A stretch of DNA of 64,000 bases from an uncultured Elusimicrobia bacterium. Lineage in GTDB: Bacteria > Elusimicrobiota > Elusimicrobia > 2-01-FULL-59-12. Below are positions 7,954-17,629 of this stretch, one piece after another. The stretch is taken from positions 800,001 through 864,000 of the forward strand of contig OY969767.1 of NCBI GenBank assembly GCA_963702895.1, given 5' to 3'. How positions within the stretch are numbered: the stretch's first letter is position 1; every line of letters begins with the position of its first letter. The position numbers and the translations under genes were made by a program. The notes beneath the pieces are model-generated. The model searched no databases and had not been told where the DNA came from. It saw nothing but the letters and a program-made list of their open reading frames with translations.

Positions 7954-9341
7954 GAGTTCTTGTCAAATGTACTGGAAATAGGGCAACGCCCCTTTCGTTG
8001 AATGTCTCTTAGGCCGCGACCTCCAGCTTCTCTCTTTCCACAAATAGTACTTCAACCAATTCCGGCTTTGCGATCGGCTTCCAGAACTGCGCTAAACGCT
8101 CAATGACCTTGTAGACGAATGCCACGCCTGTTCGGGATTTCTGGAACCGGCGCACGACTCGCGTCCGCAACCGCACTCCCGCGAAGACCGACTCAATCGG
8201 ATTGCTCGTCTTCAAATGGACCCAGTGCTCCTTCGGAAAGTCGAAGTACCTCAGCAACGTGTCATGATCCTTGCGCACACAAGCCGCAGCCTTCGGATAG
8301 CGAATTTCAAGATCCTCAGCCAACAAGGCCAACTGGTTCTCCGCGTCTTCGCGGCGCTCCGCCTGATAGGCCACCCGCAGGCGATTGAGGACTTCATCCT
8401 GCTTAGCCTTCGGCACTTTATCCACGACGTTGCGCATCTTGTGCTTCCAACACCGTTGATCCTTCGCCGAGGGATACACCTCTGCCACCGCCTCCCAGAG
8501 CCCTCCGATCCCGTCGCCGATGACCAACAGCGGAGCAGGCATACCGCGCTCCGCGACCCCTCTCCAGATTTCCTTCCAGGAATCCCGGCTCTCCCGGTAG
8601 CCTTCCATCAGCGCGATCAGTTCCTTCTGGCCTTTCGCGTTGACGCCCACCAGAACCAGAAGCGCTGTGTTCTCTTTTTCCAGCCCCGCTTTTAAATACA
8701 CGCCGTCTGCCCAGACATAGGCGTAACGCGTCTCCGATAGGTCCCGGCGACTGAACGTAGCCAGGTCCGACTGAAACTTCGCCGATAGACGCAGGATCGT
8801 GCTGGCTGATAAGGTGGCTCCATCCCCGATCAGTGCTCGCAACGCCGGCTCAAAGTCCCGACTCGAGAGTCCCTCCAGGTACAGCCGCCGGAATAACTCC
8901 TCGACCCCTTCCGTCCGCCGCTGGTAGGGCCGCAAGATGCTCGACTCAAACTCGCCTCCGTCCACCTGGGGCACCGATAGCTTCAGCCCCGCCCCCAACA
9001 CCGTCACCTTCCGCTCCCGCGTTCCGTTCCGATAGCCTTTCTCCAGATTCTTCGCCCGTTCATAGCGCCGACGCTCTAAATACATCGTCACTTCTTCTTC
9101 CAGGGCCTCCACCAGCATCTTGCGCGCTCCTTCACGGGCCAGATAATCCACCATGCTCTCGCCTTTGTGCTGAGTCCCTTTCTCGTTTACAATGGTTTCC
9201 ATAACGGCGTCTCCTTTTCGTTTATTGTCCGCTCGAACGGACAGGTTTGTGTGTTTCAACGAAAGGGTACGCCGTTTCTATTTCCTAAGGCAAATCCTTC
9301 CTTGCCTTAAAACCTATTTCCAGCACTTTTGATGGTAACTC
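7954..9341 (-). mobile_element. IS256-family insertion sequence, copy 1 (1388 bp)
   Basis: Imperfect TIRs GAGTTCTTGTCAAATGTACTGGAAATAG / GAGTTACCATCAAAAGTGCTGGAAATAG; 9-bp target duplication TTTAGGGGG (7945-7953, 9342-9350). Confidence 0.95.
8009..9202 (-). CDS. IS256 (Mutator-family) DDE transposase
   Basis: YVWADGVY, IGDG, QRCWKHK and TSNPIES motifs; ATG at 9202 with AGGAG RBS (ORF extends to 9259). Confidence 0.95.
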   Translation of the reverse strand: METIVNEKGTQHKGESMVDYLAREGARKMLVEALEEEVTMYLERRRYERAKNLEKGYRNGTRERKVTVLGAGLKLSVPQVDGGEFESSILRPYQRRTEGVEELFRRLYLEGLSSRDFEPALRALIGDGATLSASTILRLSAKFQSDLATFSRRDLSETRYAYVWADGVYLKAGLEKENTALLVLVGVNAKGQKELIALMEGYRESRDSWKEIWRGVAERGMPAPLLVIGDGIGGLWEAVAEVYPSAKDQRCWKHKMRNVVDKVPKAKQDEVLNRLRVAYQAERREDAENQLALLAEDLEIRYPKAAACVRKDHDTLLRYFDFPKEHWVHLKTSNPIESVFAGVRLRTRVVRRFQKSRTGVAFVYKVIERLAQFWKPIAKPELVEVLFVEREKLEVAA

Positions 9342-10060: not shown

Positions 10061-10888
10061 TCAGGAAGGAGGCTGCTCCGGCAGCAGTTTCTTGAAGACG
10101 GCGGGAAAGTCTTTGAGCCACCGCAGATCGGAGGGATCTTCCAGAAACGGCCGCAAATCCTTGGTCAATGAGCCGGTGTCCAGCGCTGTGACTTTTTTTT
10201 CGATCTTGGCGAGGACCTCTTGCCAGCTCCGACACGTGATGTTTTGTTTCTTTGATTGCGCCAGCCCATTCTGGAAATAAGCAAGATTGCCGGCGACACG
10301 CTGGGAAAGAAACCAGATCAGATCATAGTAATCCCTCCCGCGTTCATAAGGCCTCAGAAGGATCGCCAAGGCCTTCCCCGCAAAGAGCGTGGGCAGGTCG
10401 TACTTGAGGACCGGAAACAACTCGTTCATGCGGGCGACAAAATGGGTTTCCACCACGCCGCGCGCGGGCGGCCGGACATCGACTTCCAGCTTGATGGAGA
10501 GCTTTTGATTAGGAGGAAGTGTCAGTCCGACCCTTTCGGGGAGGCCGCCGATACGAATAAAGGCTTTCTGGACGACCTTATCTTCCGAGAAGTTGCCGCT
10601 CACATCATACCCCAGCCGGGCGAGGTCTTTGAGGGCGGAGGCGTGCAAGTCCCTCATCGAGTAGCGGGCGTTTTTCTTAAGGAGTGAAAAATCGAGATCT
10701 TCCGAGTAGCGTCTGAGCTGATGGCAAATCCGCAGGCAGGTCCCCCCCTGAAAGGCGAGCGAAGCCCCCGTGGGGGTATTGAACACAGAGCGCAGGACCA
10801 CCAGTTGCAGGTATTCGCGGCAAAAGTTCCACTTTTCCAGCTCGGAGGCTGGGGCAGCGGCCTTCAGCAGATCAAGCAGTTTTTGCAT
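10061..10888 (-). CDS. abiEii: AbiEii-family nucleotidyltransferase toxin (type IV TA)
   Basis: FQGGTCLR..HQLRRYSEDLDFS, KLEVD, AGKALA and RGRDYYDL motifs; ATG 10888 with AAGGA RBS. Confidence 0.9.
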   Translation of the reverse strand: MQKLLDLLKAAAPASELEKWNFCREYLQLVVLRSVFNTPTGASLAFQGGTCLRICHQLRRYSEDLDFSLLKKNARYSMRDLHASALKDLARLGYDVSGNFSEDKVVQKAFIRIGGLPERVGLTLPPNQKLSIKLEVDVRPPARGVVETHFVARMNELFPVLKYDLPTLFAGKALAILLRPYERGRDYYDLIWFLSQRVAGNLAYFQNGLAQSKKQNITCRSWQEVLAKIEKKVTALDTGSLTKDLRPFLEDPSDLRWLKDFPAVFKKLLPEQPPS

Positions 10889-11465
10889 AATCCTTGAGGC
10901 TTTCCCAAAGGGCCAAGACCCGACTCCCAGGATAGGGTTTGACGAGCTTGTCTCCTCGTTTCCAATCCAGGCCCTTGAGGTTTTGGAAGCGCGCTTCTCT
11001 CCAGAAGGATTTTTCCGTTTTGAGCGAATGACCCCGGAGATAGAAGTAGTCGAGGAGCGCTTTTTCCGGTTCAGCGAGGAGCCGGCTCGAATCATAGCCG
11101 AAAAAGAGGCCCGTTTGAATATGATGAAAGTGAAAACGTCCCCAGGGTGTTTGAAAAGACCGTGGAGGGCGCGTGGTGACGAGTGTTGTTTCAAAAGGAA
11201 CATCGGGCACCAGACCATGCTGGTTCAGGGCGGTCTCCATGCTGATGTAGGCAGGAGCATAGAGCGCGAGGATTCTCTCTGGTAATGAGCAGTGCCGTCC
11301 GGGAAAGGCATACACCTCGCGCCGGATTCTCTGAAGATGGCCGGCTTTGACCCAGCGGTGAAGGTTGAGCCGCAGGCCTTGAGCGTTTTCCCGGGTCGTG
11401 AGGAGCGCCTCTCGGAAGGAAAAGGCCGATTTCTTCATCAAGGCTTCAAACGCGCTGTATTTCAT
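10872..11465 (-). CDS. abiEi: AbiEi-family antitoxin (wHTH plus C-terminal domain)
   Basis: LHRWVKAGHLQRIRREVY, AYISMETALNQHGLVP, AEPEKALLDYFY; overlaps the toxin start. Confidence 0.85.
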   Translation of the reverse strand: MKYSAFEALMKKSAFSFREALLTTRENAQGLRLNLHRWVKAGHLQRIRREVYAFPGRHCSLPERILALYAPAYISMETALNQHGLVPDVPFETTLVTTRPPRSFQTPWGRFHFHHIQTGLFFGYDSSRLLAEPEKALLDYFYLRGHSLKTEKSFWREARFQNLKGLDWKRGDKLVKPYPGSRVLALWESLKDYAKTA

Positions 11466-11467
11466 AA

Positions 11468-11501
11468 TTACGTTAATTATCATAAATGATAATTAACGTA
11501 A
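11468..11501. promoter_or_regulatory. Perfect 16-bp inverted repeat, putative AbiEi autorepression operator
   Basis: TTACGTTAATTATCAT-AA-ATGATAATTAACGTAA directly upstream of the antitoxin ATG. Confidence 0.8.
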
Positions 11502-11533: not shown

Positions 11534-11643
11534 AGGGAACGTCAACGGCAAACGGCGATAATAGAAAATAGAAAATAGACCATTTGAGTGGTGGGGGAAA
11601 AGACGCTGGGTTGCCTGCGGAAGGCGAAAAGGCGTCTTTTTTA
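11534..11643. repeat. Cassette-boundary repeat copy B (uninterrupted)
   Basis: Homologous to 9860-10030; abuts the stop codon of the four-helix-bundle gene. Confidence 0.8.
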
Positions 11644-11994
11644 TTTCTGTGTCTGAATGAGGCGCGTGATCATTTTGCCAATCAAATCGAGGTCTCCTTT
11701 CAGTCGCGGATAGTCCTCTGCACGAATCAGGCCATGCTGAACGGCGAATTGCAGGTGTGTGACGCATTCATTGGTTGATCCTCGTGACACCCAAAAGAAT
11801 TGTTTCCGATCGCCGATGTGCCACCGGCCAGACCCCTCAGCCAAATTTGCAGGAATCGACATGACCGCTCTGCGGAATTGGTCGCAGAGGACGGGGTTTC
11901 GACTTCGGGGTGCCTTTTCGAGGGATTGGAGAATTTCCGTAGCAAATGACATGCTTTTCTTGTAAACGCGCATCTCCTCAAACAAAAAGCCCAT
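11641..11994 (-). CDS. Four-helix-bundle protein (23S rRNA IVP/Avd-like family)
   Basis: FEEMRVYKKS, DQFRRAVMSIPANLAEGSGR, SRGSTNEC signature. Confidence 0.9.
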   Translation of the reverse strand: MGFLFEEMRVYKKSMSFATEILQSLEKAPRSRNPVLCDQFRRAVMSIPANLAEGSGRWHIGDRKQFFWVSRGSTNECVTHLQFAVQHGLIRAEDYPRLKGDLDLIGKMITRLIQTQK

Positions 11995-12042
11995 ACATCC
12001 CTTAGATGCAAAAACCTCGAAAATATTCACGATTCATTTAAC

Positions 12043-12377
12043 ACGGCATACGGCGAAAATAGACAATAGAAAATAGTGGTTCCAGGCTTTTTTACGGCAT
12101 CCGGCGCGCGGGTTGATCTTTCAGGGTCGCTGTATGCGTAGAGAAAACGTCAAAGGCAAACGGCGAAAATAGAGAATAGAAAATAGTAGTTCCAGGCTTT
12201 TTTTCCGGCATCCGGCGCGCGGGTTGATCTTTCAGGGTCGCTGTATGCGTAGAGAAAACGTCAAAGGCAAACGGCGAAAATAGAGAATAGAAAATAGTAG
12301 TTCCAGGCTTTTTTTCCGGCATCCGGCGCTATTGTCTATTTTCTATTTTCGCCGTATGCCGTAAAAAAAGCCTGGAA
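12043..12377. repeat. About 2.5 tandem copies of a 110-111-bp unit enclosed by a 21-bp perfect inverted repeat
   Basis: Units start at 12051, 12161 and 12272. ACGGCATACGGCGAAAATAGA (12043-12063) is the reverse complement of 12342-12362. Confidence 0.9.
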
Positions 12378-12827: not shown

Positions 12828-13232
12828 CTAGCGTCGAGCGGAAATCTTCTTCAGTGTGTCCCAGCTGTCCAAAACGTCCTGAGACGTGCGCAGGGAGCGT
12901 TTCTTGAGGAGCTTCCGGTGCTCGCGTGTGTACCCGAAGACGTGGGGGTGTCGGAGGGTGAGTTTGCGGATGAGGGTCCTGATCACATGGTCGATCGTGA
13001 AACGGCCCTTTTCTTTGGCGAGTTGGGCATGGAAAACAACCTGCAAGAGCAGGTCGCCCAGCTCTTCTTCCATGTTGCGGTAATCCTTTTTGTGGACGGA
13101 CTGCTTGAATTCCCGGGCCTCCGCGAAGAGGTATTTCAATAGACTGGCGTGGGTTTGTTTGCGGTCCCACGGGCAGCCCTTGGGGGACCTGAGCCGGGCC
13201 ATCACCTGAACCAGTTTTTGAAAGGAAGTCAT
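12828..13232 (-). CDS. mazG: MazG-family nucleotide pyrophosphohydrolase (single domain)
   Basis: RLRSPKGCPWDRKQT, EEELGDLLLQVVFH, RHPHVFG. Confidence 0.85.
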   Translation of the reverse strand: MTSFQKLVQVMARLRSPKGCPWDRKQTHASLLKYLFAEAREFKQSVHKKDYRNMEEELGDLLLQVVFHAQLAKEKGRFTIDHVIRTLIRKLTLRHPHVFGYTREHRKLLKKRSLRTSQDVLDSWDTLKKISARR

Positions 13233-13293
13233 AAGCTGTTCACGAAGAGTGCGAATTGTATAAAATCTTCCATGTTTTACCGGGTGTTCTTGT

Positions 13294-13685
13294 GGACTGG
13301 TGGCGTCCCGTATCCTGTATACGCTAAGGACGGGACAGTCCCGCGGCGTAAGCACGTAGGTGCGCGGGACGGAACTGGCATACGCTTTCTAGCGTATGAT
13401 GTTTAGAGGCGGTTTGGTGGACTGGTGGCGGAATTGGCATACGCGTACGGCTCAGGACCGTATTCCGAAAGGATTGCGGGTTCAACTCCCGCCCAGTCCA
13501 CCAAACCGCCTCAATATTTTAAGCCTACGGCTCAGGACCGTATTCCGAAAGGATTGCGCCCGCCACGACTTCGCGGCGGGCGTCCGCCGAGACTTAGTGG
13601 CGGCCGGGTTCATCCCCACGCAACGCGCAGGGATAGTCCCACCCCGTAAGGGCAGAGGAAGGTGGGACAACTCCCGCCCAGTCCA
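13294..13685 (+). pseudogene. Split, hairpin-interrupted outer tRNA-Leu(CAG) copy surrounding the intact tRNA
   Basis: Pieces 13294-13305, 13372-13385, 13526-13558, 13607-13612 and 13670-13685 concatenate to a near-exact copy of 13419-13500. Confidence 0.8.
13419..13503 (+). tRNA. tRNA-Leu(CAG)
   Basis: GGACTGG/CCAGTCC acceptor, TACGG-CTCAGGA-CCGTA anticodon arm, long variable arm, GGTTCAACTCC, encoded CCA. Confidence 0.95.
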
Positions 13686-13715
13686 CTGGAGCACTTTTAA
13701 AACACTGGACTTCGC

Positions 13716-14192
13716 ATGAAACCGAAAGCTCCCGCGCCTCCTCCGGCGATCTCCAACCGCAAGGCCCGTCATGACTATCACATCCTGGAAACCTATGAGG
13801 CGGGCATCGCCCTGAAGGGGCCCGAAGTAAAATCCCTGCGCAACGGCAAAGCCAGCCTCCAGGACTCTTTCGCCCGCGTGGAGAAGGGCGAAGTACTTCT
13901 TTACAACATGCACATCAACCCTTATGCTTTTACGCACCACACGGATTTAAGCCCCACAAGGTCGCGCAAACTCCTGCTTCATGCGCAGGAGATTAAAAAA
14001 CTCACCGGGCGGGTTCAAGAGAAGGGATTGACGCTCGTGCCTCTGGAAGTCTTCTTCAACGGAAAGGGGATCGCCAAGGTGAGCCTCGCGCTCGCCAAAG
14101 GCAAGCTCGCACCGGACCGCCGCGACGACATCAAGAAGCGGGACCTCGAACGCGAAGCCCGCAGGGACTATCGAGCCAGGACAAAGTTTTAG
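13716..14192 (+). CDS. smpB: SsrA-binding protein SmpB
   Basis: NRKARHDYHILETYEAGIALKGPEVKSLR, RSRKLLLH. Confidence 0.97.
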   Translation: MKPKAPAPPPAISNRKARHDYHILETYEAGIALKGPEVKSLRNGKASLQDSFARVEKGEVLLYNMHINPYAFTHHTDLSPTRSRKLLLHAQEIKKLTGRVQEKGLTLVPLEVFFNGKGIAKVSLALAKGKLAPDRRDDIKKRDLEREARRDYRARTKF

Positions 14193-16729: not shown

Positions 16730-16914
16730 GCTGACTTGAACGAGTAAGGAAGCTGGGATGATCCCCTCCATCCGAGTCACTCCCCGCCGCCCGAAGAGAG
16801 GACGGAACAGAGCTGAATCGGTATAATACGCCCCTCGGTCGCTCCCGTTCCTTTTAGAATAGGGATGCGGGACGCCGGCCAAACTTCAGGCAAGGCGATC
16901 GCTGTGGTCTTGAT

Positions 16915-17001
16915 GGAGAGATGCGAGAGCGGTTGAATCGGCTCCCCTGGAAAGGGAGTAGGGGTGAAAGCTCCTCGAGGGTTCGAATCCCTCTCTCTCC
17001 G
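16915..17001 (+). tRNA. tRNA-Ser(GGA)
   Basis: GGAGAGA/TCTCTCC acceptor, CTCCC-CTGGAAA-GGGAG, long variable arm, GTTCGAATC. Confidence 0.95.
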
Positions 17002-17187
17002 CTGAGACCATCGTGCGGGCGCGTGACACACATCCGTAGCGTCCGCCTGACTTGAGGTGGGAGTCGCCGGGTGTGTGGCGCTCCCCGCCACTCCATCTCA
17101 AGACAGCATGCGAGGATCCCTCCGCTGGAGGGGCCTGTTGTAGGTAGTTTGTATAATGAGCACCGATTTCGGTTTTGGAATGTTGCT

Positions 17188-17277
17188 GGGGGTGTAGCTC
17201 AGCTGGGAGAGCCTCGCCAGACTACAGGCGAGCCCGCCGGCTGTCTGGCGGGGGTCGCCGCGGCGACAGGTCGCCGG
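17188..17277 (+). pseudogene. Truncated chimeric tRNA-Ala copy with double-hairpin insert
   Basis: GGGGGTGTAGCTCAGCTGGGAGAGC, then hairpin pair, GTCGCCGCGGCGAC and AGGTCGCCGG; no T-loop or 3' acceptor strand. Confidence 0.75.
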
Positions 17278-17313
17278 CGTAGGGTGTTTCAGGAGCAATT
17301 TTTGGGAGTTGGT

Positions 17314-17602
17314 GGGGGTGTAGCTCAGCATATGAAAGAAGGCGCGTTGCTGGGGGTGTAGCTCAGCTGGGAGAGCGCATCGTTCGCAACGATGAGGTCG
17401 CCGGTTCGATCCCGGTCACCTCCAGCAACGCGCTTCATTTGGGAGAGCCTCGCCAGACTACGGCGAGCCCGCCGGCTGTCTGGCGGGGGTCGCCGCGGCG
17501 ACAGGTCGAGGGTTCGTCCCGCATTCTTAGACTCTTACGATGCGGGACAGTCCCAACCCATAAGGATGGAGGAAGGTGGGACGAGCCCCTTCACCTCCAC
17601 CA
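17314..17602 (+). pseudogene. Split outer tRNA-Ala-like copy surrounding the intact tRNA-Ala
   Basis: Pieces 17314-17329, 17440-17448, 17488-17516 and 17584-17602 give a cloverleaf with G3:U70 and CCA but a collapsed anticodon loop. Confidence 0.75.
17352..17424 (+). tRNA. tRNA-Ala(CGC)
   Basis: GGGGGTG/CACCTCC acceptor with G3:U70, CATCG-TTCGCAA-CGATG, GGTTCGATCC; CCA not encoded. Confidence 0.95.
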
Positions 17603-17629
17603 ACTCCCCGTCTATTTCCAAATTCATCT

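Follow-up and report, generated by a model that had tools for sequence, protein, structure and literature searches.

Several described systems share features with the locus studied here. The T4 nuclease SegB cuts the sequence GGTTCRANTCC, leaves 2-nt 3' overhangs, and spreads or amplifies tRNA regions in T-even phages (PMC2330249, PMC13096335). Ssn nucleases (cd10448) are small GIY-YIG proteins tied to NTS/SRM hairpin repeats, at which they cut single-stranded DNA, and single strands only (PMC11893778); tRNA is not mentioned in that paper. RAYTs are the transposases that mobilise REPINs, which are inverted doublets (PMC3337134, PMC3733652). Integrating elements can split a tRNA gene and leave behind a working copy together with a fragment (10.1101/2022.07.05.498093), and archaeal intron-containing or split tRNA genes lie in pieces that can be joined on paper by removing paired inserts and that are spliced at bulge-helix-bulge motifs into a working tRNA (PMC3218864). 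We found no account of self-nested bacterial tRNA genes in the full texts searched, a set with few subscription papers and no supplements; the supplements of PMC11893778 (genes near repeats) lie outside that search and could bear on novelty. The nested tRNA genes described below are real, widespread in their lineage and absent from the papers searched, and the mechanism that we propose for them is plausible.

The window analysed is a stretch of 64,000 nucleotides from an uncultured Elusimicrobia bacterium (source genome G000; other G numbers denote related genomes), and it contains four tRNA genes. One of these, tRNA-Leu(CAG), lies between a divergent mazG (12828-13232, minus strand; Pfam MazG, E 6e-26) and smpB (13716-14192, plus strand; Pfam SmpB, E 6e-57), both outside the nest, which spans 13272-13702; no terminator-like site was found between the nest and smpB. 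Both ARAGORN and Rfam called a single tRNA-Leu(CAG) at 13419-13503 on the plus strand with its CCA encoded, the sole CAG gene of this single-contig, 98% complete genome, and Rfam reported nothing but tRNA above gathering score at the locus. Upstream, the window also carries a Mutator-family (IS256-type) transposase (8009-9259), an AbiEi/AbiEii type IV toxin-antitoxin pair (10061-11483), and a four-helix-bundle gene (Pfam 23S_rRNA_IVP; 11641-12350) with short tandem AATAGA-type repeats and a direct repeat of ~117 nt on its flanks.

Around the intact gene, on the same strand, lies an older copy of it in five blocks. Two precede the intact gene, at 13294-13305 (tRNA positions 1-12; 12/12 identical) and 13370-13385 (positions 11-26; 15/16, with T16C), and three follow it, at 13526-13558 (positions 28-60, with the anticodon and variable arm; 33/33), 13605-13612 (positions 59-66) and 13668-13686 (positions 65-83, without CCA; 19/19). 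The intact gene thus sits between positions 26 and 28 of the outer copy, and position 27 is unmatched. A predicted sigma70-like promoter match (13239-13266; 1 site vs 0.2 expected) precedes the outer copy, whose leader (13272-13293) is predicted to pair with 13685-13702 (duplex -11.1 kcal/mol), a segment that takes in the trailer (13687-13702). Three inserts interrupt the outer blocks: 64 nt in the D stem with CG duplicated (13306-13369; fold -33.2 kcal/mol), 46 nt with CG duplicated, formed by an inverted CGCCAC hairpin doublet with CG at its centre and belonging to a 99-copy family (13559-13604), and 55 nt in the T loop with CA duplicated (13613-13667). Where an initial annotation of this DNA had seen three hairpin inserts, each proved to be a pair of hairpins bounded by a 2-nt duplication. 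By eye, arms resembling insert 1 occur at Leu(UAG), Phe and Val loci of relatives, and a relative of insert 3 (32/38) lies in the T loop of a dead tRNA-Ala copy (17544-17581).

The intact gene and its arms form a cassette. Its left arm (13386-13418; 33 nt) begins with a 7-bp fold-back on the 5' end of the outer copy (13379-13385/13392-13398) and continues with 13 nt that pair with 13500-13512, and its right arm spans 13504-13525 (22 nt). As the annotation had claimed, the acceptor stem is extended into a perfect 20-bp helix (13406-13425/13493-13512), made of 7 bp of acceptor stem and 13 bp of flank, the latter also pairing the discriminator and CCA of the intact tRNA. The complementary flanks that it had assigned to the outer copy were likewise paired in a fold of the whole region (z = -8.64; 0/100 shuffles equally good). 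With the cassette and all three inserts removed in silico, ARAGORN called the outer copy as tRNA-Leu(CAG), differing from the intact gene at 4/85 positions (16, 27, 84 and 85; CCA missing), whereas no call was made when only the cassette was removed. The locus reached a spliced-alignment score of 55.1, whereas the highest score among 188 random flanks was 17.2. The nested structure is thereby confirmed as it stands in the assembly sequence.

We consider the chance that the nest is an assembly artefact to be close to negligible. Both the inserts and the arms consist of unique sequence, a variant of its own marks the outer copy, and the same layout recurs in genomes that were assembled independently; at Ala(CGC), three genera share homologous arms. 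Set against this, no public sequencing run covered the nest (at most 0.11 of its words matched, all of them tRNA or smpB pieces of other organisms), and we found no metagenome contig spanning the whole of it.

We next compared the locus with tRNA genes split by integrating elements. Between mazG and smpB there was no integrase-sized frame, both ends of the outer gene remain in register around an insert of ~140 nt, and the expected repeat of a single tRNA end, distal to an element with an integrase, was not seen; the whole gene is replaced, and nests elsewhere reach a depth of three, at Arg(GCG). The annotation's view that this is not ordinary prophage or ICE integration is supported. No nuclease gene or clear remnant of one was found at the Leu(CAG) locus. 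A reading of the left arm as the remnant of a nuclease gene start was dropped, its sole basis being one ATG-TTT.

Another alternative is that the nest is a functional RNA, its outer copy being spliced or folded into a second tRNA or serving as a processing scaffold. The outer blocks are almost unchanged (1 substitution across 82 nt, the three inserts notwithstanding), and the whole region is predicted to fold as nested helices. However, no tRNA splicing endonuclease was found in this 98% complete genome (PF01974, 0 matches, with matches in 4 archaeal controls), an intact gene is present, and the outer copy lacks both CCA and position 27. Nests are absent at Leu(CAG) in same-genus relatives, and break points and inserts vary between genera. 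We also considered whether the flank helix stops the inner gene pairing wrongly with the two halves of the outer copy, but blocking this extension left the predicted acceptor pairing unchanged. We therefore regard a functional nest as most improbable, and the processed nested transcript yielding a second tRNA, one of two origins offered by the initial annotation, was not borne out.

Nesting is not confined to Leu(CAG). A survey of tRNA loci for ordered nesting, as the annotation had suggested, found it at 11-15 of the 47 tRNA genes in this closed genome and in three related genera besides. Of these 47 genes, 25 outscored all 188 nulls (two of them only via a neighbouring tRNA gene), 15 have a 5' part upstream and a 3' part downstream, and 11 are nested under a stricter 110-nt test; about a quarter of the tRNA genes of this genome are nested in a broken older copy. 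Among relatives, with counts drawn from the 30 best tRNA loci per genome, nested genes numbered 8/33 in G007, 4/34 in G006, 1/35 in G004 and 0/33 in G037, where one gene appears nested by eye despite the automatic count. Across the 193 tRNA genes examined, 21 had fragments on both sides, and the breaks in 8 of these were in register within 2 nt, against 2.4 expected (P=0.0008; kin are not independent in this or any other count given here). The automatic call placed the other 13 out of register, some of them being mis-picks of the rule.

Cassette anatomy recurs at these loci as well. A flank helix of at least 6 pairs was present at 12/15 nested genes, compared with 9/32 other genes (P=0.0014), and in 37/2162 swapped-leader controls. 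Cassette arms are mostly 15-35 nt, and inner flanks are unlike those of the resident gene at Leu(CAG) and most nests. The insert at Glu(UUC) consists of a single ~30-bp hairpin whose loop is the tRNA. Intact Leu(UAG) genes of four genera appear, by eye, as the tips of repeat hairpins like insert 1, and at Ala(CGC) the arms shared among three genera are found at differing break points. In the window, tRNA-Ala(CGC) forms a second nest (17187-17605; break 17|18), accompanied by an additional 5' fragment whose hairpins match those of the 3' part. Here the hairpins lie in a fragment without a cassette, so damaged fragments can predate a cassette or travel with it. The 35 nt after the additional fragment may be a deleted nuclease gene; by eye, both their start and their end are like those at the L180 locus. 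Also in the window, tRNA-Ser(GGA) (16843-17090) has a paired leader and trailer, an insert-1-type hairpin upstream and CGCC hairpins downstream, and is perhaps a decayed nest.

Part of this material fits a different account, in which two separate one-ended events, such as small circles integrating one via the 5' end and another via the 3' end in attL/attR fashion, produced the two halves and then lost their cargo. One-sided tRNA-fragment loci are common in the source genome (10/47), tandem 3' stubs occur at Gln, Phe and Val, nuclease loci often have fragments on one side or overlapping ones, and integrating elements are known to leave tRNA fragments (10.1101/2022.07.05.498093). The 13 nests called out of register and the overlapping fragments at several nuclease loci fit separate one-ended duplications and to that extent weigh against the nuclease model developed below. 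On the other hand, in-register breaks exceed chance, with 26|28 at Leu(CAG), and the left and right arms pair with each other (13/13 here, ~30 bp at Glu(UUC)), which would not be expected of unrelated elements. Nor do one-ended events fit an inner gene that is wholly foreign, as in G006. We judge this account unlikely. The tandem arrays of tRNA 3' ends lie behind Gln(CUG), Phe and Val(GAC) (G000:C1:2455000-2455470, 1598600-1599030 and 1171100-1171690), and those at Gln and Phe carry doublets in their T loops.

To distinguish resident from incoming copies at Leu(CAG), we compared the locus with its relatives. Five of them (G002, G003, G004, G005 and G010) have a plain single Leu(CAG) gene; in G007 a 3' stub accompanies the gene, and a doublet lies in the T loop of that stub. 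The promoter-like motif 5' of the outer copy also precedes the plain gene of G002, and in a soil contig (one contig, depth 3.5) the shared promoter stretch is joined by a short leader to a tRNA with the exact sequence of the inner gene, without any nesting. Since this motif is shared with the plain gene of G002 and the soil contig, the outer copy is in the ancestral place and, on this comparison, is the resident gene. The unit of promoter plus tRNA (13239-13702) is inverted relative to smpB among genomes, lying on the same strand as smpB in G000 and G010 and on the opposite strand in G002, G003, G004, G005 and G007.

The closing stem is not specific to nests. Leader and trailer of the plain gene pair in 5/6 relatives, as they do for both copies in the source genome, with different letters each time, which points to a leader-trailer helix as a trait of the Leu(CAG) gene in this family, and to an inner gene that arrived with flanks unlike those of the resident. 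Compared with the five relatives that have a plain gene, both copies have a longer D loop and the same T-loop variant, two derived states that indicate a donor from the same lineage or a close relative. We rejected a stricter reading of these states as self-copying, because a tRNA identical to the inner gene occurs in three soil contigs, with other flanks in at least two, and a close relative would be an equally good donor.

A clearer case of replacement was found at Leu(UAG) of G006. Here 77/83, 78/83 and 75/84 positions of the dead outer copy agree with the genes of G000, G007 and G009, whereas the inner gene matches them at only 62, 63 and 60 positions and its own outer copy at 62/83. By these identities, the resident Leu(UAG) of G006 is replaced from inside by a foreign tRNA. 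Together, the in-register breaks, the plain alleles at the outer position and this foreign replacement uphold the part of the annotation's interpretation in which a stem-closed tRNA copy was inserted into the same gene; damage to the outer copy of Leu(CAG) may have preceded that insertion, as in the rescue that the annotation proposed, or followed it.

The other part, RNA templating, was not supported. Under that alternative, the precursor tRNA, leader-trailer helix included, would have been copied by reverse transcription, or have acted as a template itself, in the filling of a break in the gene that encodes it. In size, cassettes roughly match a precursor, and the source genome holds three 507-aa reverse transcriptase frames; these are near-identical, probably belong to group II introns, and lie at G000:C1:230277, 463860 and 1962540. 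But the inner flanks differ from those of the resident, which a copy of the gene's own transcript would have kept, the inner gene of G006 is foreign, and no reverse transcriptase was found in G004, G006 or G007, which are 95-98% complete and all contain nests. RNA templating is thus very unlikely.

We then examined the hairpin inserts as a family. The family of insert 2 comprises 99 inverted doublets in the source genome, 84 of them distinct, so that two inverted palindromes form a repeated family at a REPIN-like ~100 copies per genome (PMC3337134, PMC3733652). Half of the distinct doublets (42/84) lie at most 700 nt from a tRNA, stretches that make up 2.1% of the genome. Among the 25 doublets whose gap is 6 nt, 20 show a duplication of the flanking dinucleotide together with its reverse complement at the centre, giving the patterns CG-CG-CG or CA-TG-CA. 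Of the 37 mapped inserts, which include tandem copies, 20 lie behind GTTCR and 30 behind CG or CA. The T-loop form of the pattern occurred at 7 loci in 185,579 genomes, all in Elusimicrobiota. The simplest reading of these doublets would be a break with a 2-nt stagger, the addition of a hairpin onto each end, and rejoining via the mirrored bases; a copy taken from a donor site with that context would produce a similar pattern. A regular expression for a second repeat class was too loose to be used (72 matches, mostly chance), and CGCCAC doublets also occur inside NTS-type hairpins elsewhere in the genome.

The layout of inverted hairpin doublets would also suit REPINs (PMC3337134), the doublets and the hairpin-closed tRNA genes both having been moved by a RAYT, or by another HUH (Y1) transposase, that has since been lost or acts from elsewhere. 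Y1 genes occur in 9/10 relatives. HUH enzymes are, moreover, able to join DNA. However, the source genome holds only a broken Y1 frame of 89 aa, and none of the 20 Y1 flanks inspected, out of 29 loci in relatives, shows these repeats, other terminal repeats being visible there by eye; no RAYT flanked by these repeats was thus found. The repeats adjoin GIY-YIG genes instead. They further differ from REPINs in that half of the copies are at tRNA genes, the 2-nt duplication is mirrored at the centre, and a tRNA gene can be the hairpin tip. Movement by such a transposase therefore appears quite unlikely.

The genes that do accompany these repeats encode small GIY-YIG proteins. Six of the nine short GIY-YIG genes in the source genome are in tRNA loci, none at Leu(CAG), and those at other tRNA loci encode single domains under 150 aa (for example, 79 aa; Pfam GIY-YIG, E 8e-18). 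Members of the tRNA-associated clade in this genome include a 79-aa protein encoded at G000:C1:1700934-1701170 (minus strand) and two proteins at the Asn locus. Proteins of this clade are single domains of 76-90 aa, chromosomal, with UPF0213 and SLX1 proteins as their nearest solved structures, and Tyr5, Arg26, His30 and Glu62 are invariant in a 7-row alignment. A profile built from seven tRNA-associated proteins matched 65/201 genomes of the phylum, and 18/29 of the best outside hits, with the profile's own sequences excluded, lie no more than 500 nt from a same-strand tRNA. Of the 42 proteins scoring at least 70 bits, the seven profile members included, 32 are at most 300 nt away from a tRNA; 26 have fragments, 15 are nested and 24 have CGCC hairpins, compared with 11, 4, 2 and 3 of the 40 proteins below 70 bits. 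The flanks of a few proteins with high scores are of another kind. Only 13 of 44 distant metagenome relatives were beside a tRNA, and 3 were nested, in a contig scan that used a single protein query and reached relatives only 35-58% identical. No match to the profile was found in G004, which nevertheless has nested genes.

A recurrent cassette was apparent at these loci, consisting of a 5' fragment, a hairpin replacing the anticodon arm, the nuclease gene, the intact tRNA and a 3' fragment. Seven of the nuclease genes use the TAG at tRNA positions 8-10 as their stop codon. At L191 an intact cassette adjoins gene-less deletion derivatives, and at L180 a cassette lies behind the tail of an earlier one. 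Several loci have overlapping 5' and 3' fragments (L226), and often a fragment is present on one side only. In one subclade, 5/5 rows lie beside tRNA-Ala (quick tree, support 80). A separate GIY-YIG subclade with a different hairpin family was observed at tRNA-Gln(UUG) in three genera (L178, L179 and L190). Other small GIY-YIG genes (L244, L257, L258 and L270) are bounded by short inverted repeats of their own and, by eye, are apparently inserted in four-helix-bundle genes as further IS-like GIY-YIG elements.

These proteins share with Ssn nucleases a small single-domain GIY-YIG gene and a hairpin repeat family of its own, a combination proposed to be mobile-element-like (PMC11893778). Yet in a quick tree on 88 columns, in which SsnA is not among the rows, the tRNA-associated proteins form a 54-row clade apart from 11 NTS-flanked proteins of these genomes (support 98/99) and apart from housekeeping GIY-YIG proteins. 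NTS-like flanks were found at 10/11 of the NTS-flanked proteins, 0/11 of which lie beside a tRNA, and at only 3/42 proteins of at least 70 bits, so the tRNA-associated proteins did not group with an SsnA-type clade having NTS/SRM flanks. The repeats described here also carry another motif and lie inside tRNA fragments, and Ssn-type single-strand cutting would not, by itself, give a 2-nt stagger. Two Ssn-like GIY-YIG genes with NTS-type hairpin flanks are present in the source genome (G000:C1:543339-543560 and 554279-554500).

SegB offers a second set of parallels. It too is a GIY-YIG gene among tRNA genes (PMC2330249) that spreads or amplifies itself together with neighbouring tRNA genes (PMC2330249, PMC13096335); its target holds a T-loop motif, which it cuts to leave 2-nt 3' overhangs, and the scars seen here, 20/37 mapped inserts behind GTTCR and the 2-nt duplications, may reflect a similar cut. 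In contrast, SegB belongs to phages and acts by homologous recombination, through which its region is converted or amplified in tandem, with no gene nested in a split copy, no hairpin doublets and no replacement inside the target. A tblastn search of 50,697 phage records with the nuclease gave 2 weak, unannotated hits (38-42% identity) and no T4-like segB, so that neither SegB homology nor a phage location was found beyond these, and a plasmid collection gave 2 weak hits with no carrier identified. The system at tRNA genes resembles, in its workings, a cross of SegB homing and Ssn-repeat elements, but it lacks a defining property of each.

Taking these observations together, we propose that breaks made by a nuclease in tRNA genes are patched with hairpin-closed DNA, whole tRNA genes included, a reading to which we give a probability of roughly 0.55. 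The Leu(CAG) locus would then most likely be a scar left by a very small selfish element that cuts DNA, targets tRNA genes and deposits a spare copy. In this model, small single-domain GIY-YIG nucleases of the tRNA-associated clade would cut tRNA genes at conserved motifs, namely behind the T-loop GTTCR and at CG/CA in the D stem and at arm junctions, probably leaving 2-nt staggered ends. The breaks would be patched by hairpin-closed DNA, mostly a pair of short hairpins, one per broken end. Because GIY-YIG enzymes are hydrolases, a joining step by host enzymes must be assumed. Sometimes the patch would be an entire tRNA gene, closed by the helix of its leader and trailer, and a nuclease gene might or might not come with it. 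Where the broken gene is needed, a patch would be retained only if it brought an intact tRNA of that kind; the old gene would remain as two halves around the patch and, being unselected, gather hairpin pairs at its remaining sites, three of them here. The new inner gene could be targeted again, giving deeper nests. Ordinary end-processing would release the working tRNA from a long precursor, and the outer copy would yield no tRNA. The donor may be a sister copy or DNA taken up from a relative, uptake being possible given that ComEC is present in the genome.

A more general proposal, tentative and on balance doubtful, is that this represents a form of mobile DNA without transposase or recombinase, in which an 80-residue GIY-YIG protein makes the break, hairpin caps mirror the overhang and rejoining proceeds via two bases. 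Whole tRNA genes would be movable because a tRNA gene with paired flanks can act as a capping hairpin; as such hairpins they would move between lineages and replace their cognates from inside, recursively, with nuclease subclades specific to particular kinds of tRNA.

If the nuclease reading is true, tRNA genes would be repeatedly broken and replaced from inside across whole bacterial lineages, and foreign tRNAs would be swapped in at a native promoter, although tRNA genes are usually regarded as the part of a chromosome that is most stable and vertically inherited. It would add a large family of very small site-specific nucleases and make a sharp biochemical prediction, a cut behind GTTCR or CG/CA with a 2-nt stagger. 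It would also supply a candidate mover for palindromic repeat families without a known transposase; CGTC repeats are described as lacking one (PMC3733652). For annotation, such loci give false calls of intron-containing tRNAs and contain repeats that break short-read assemblies.
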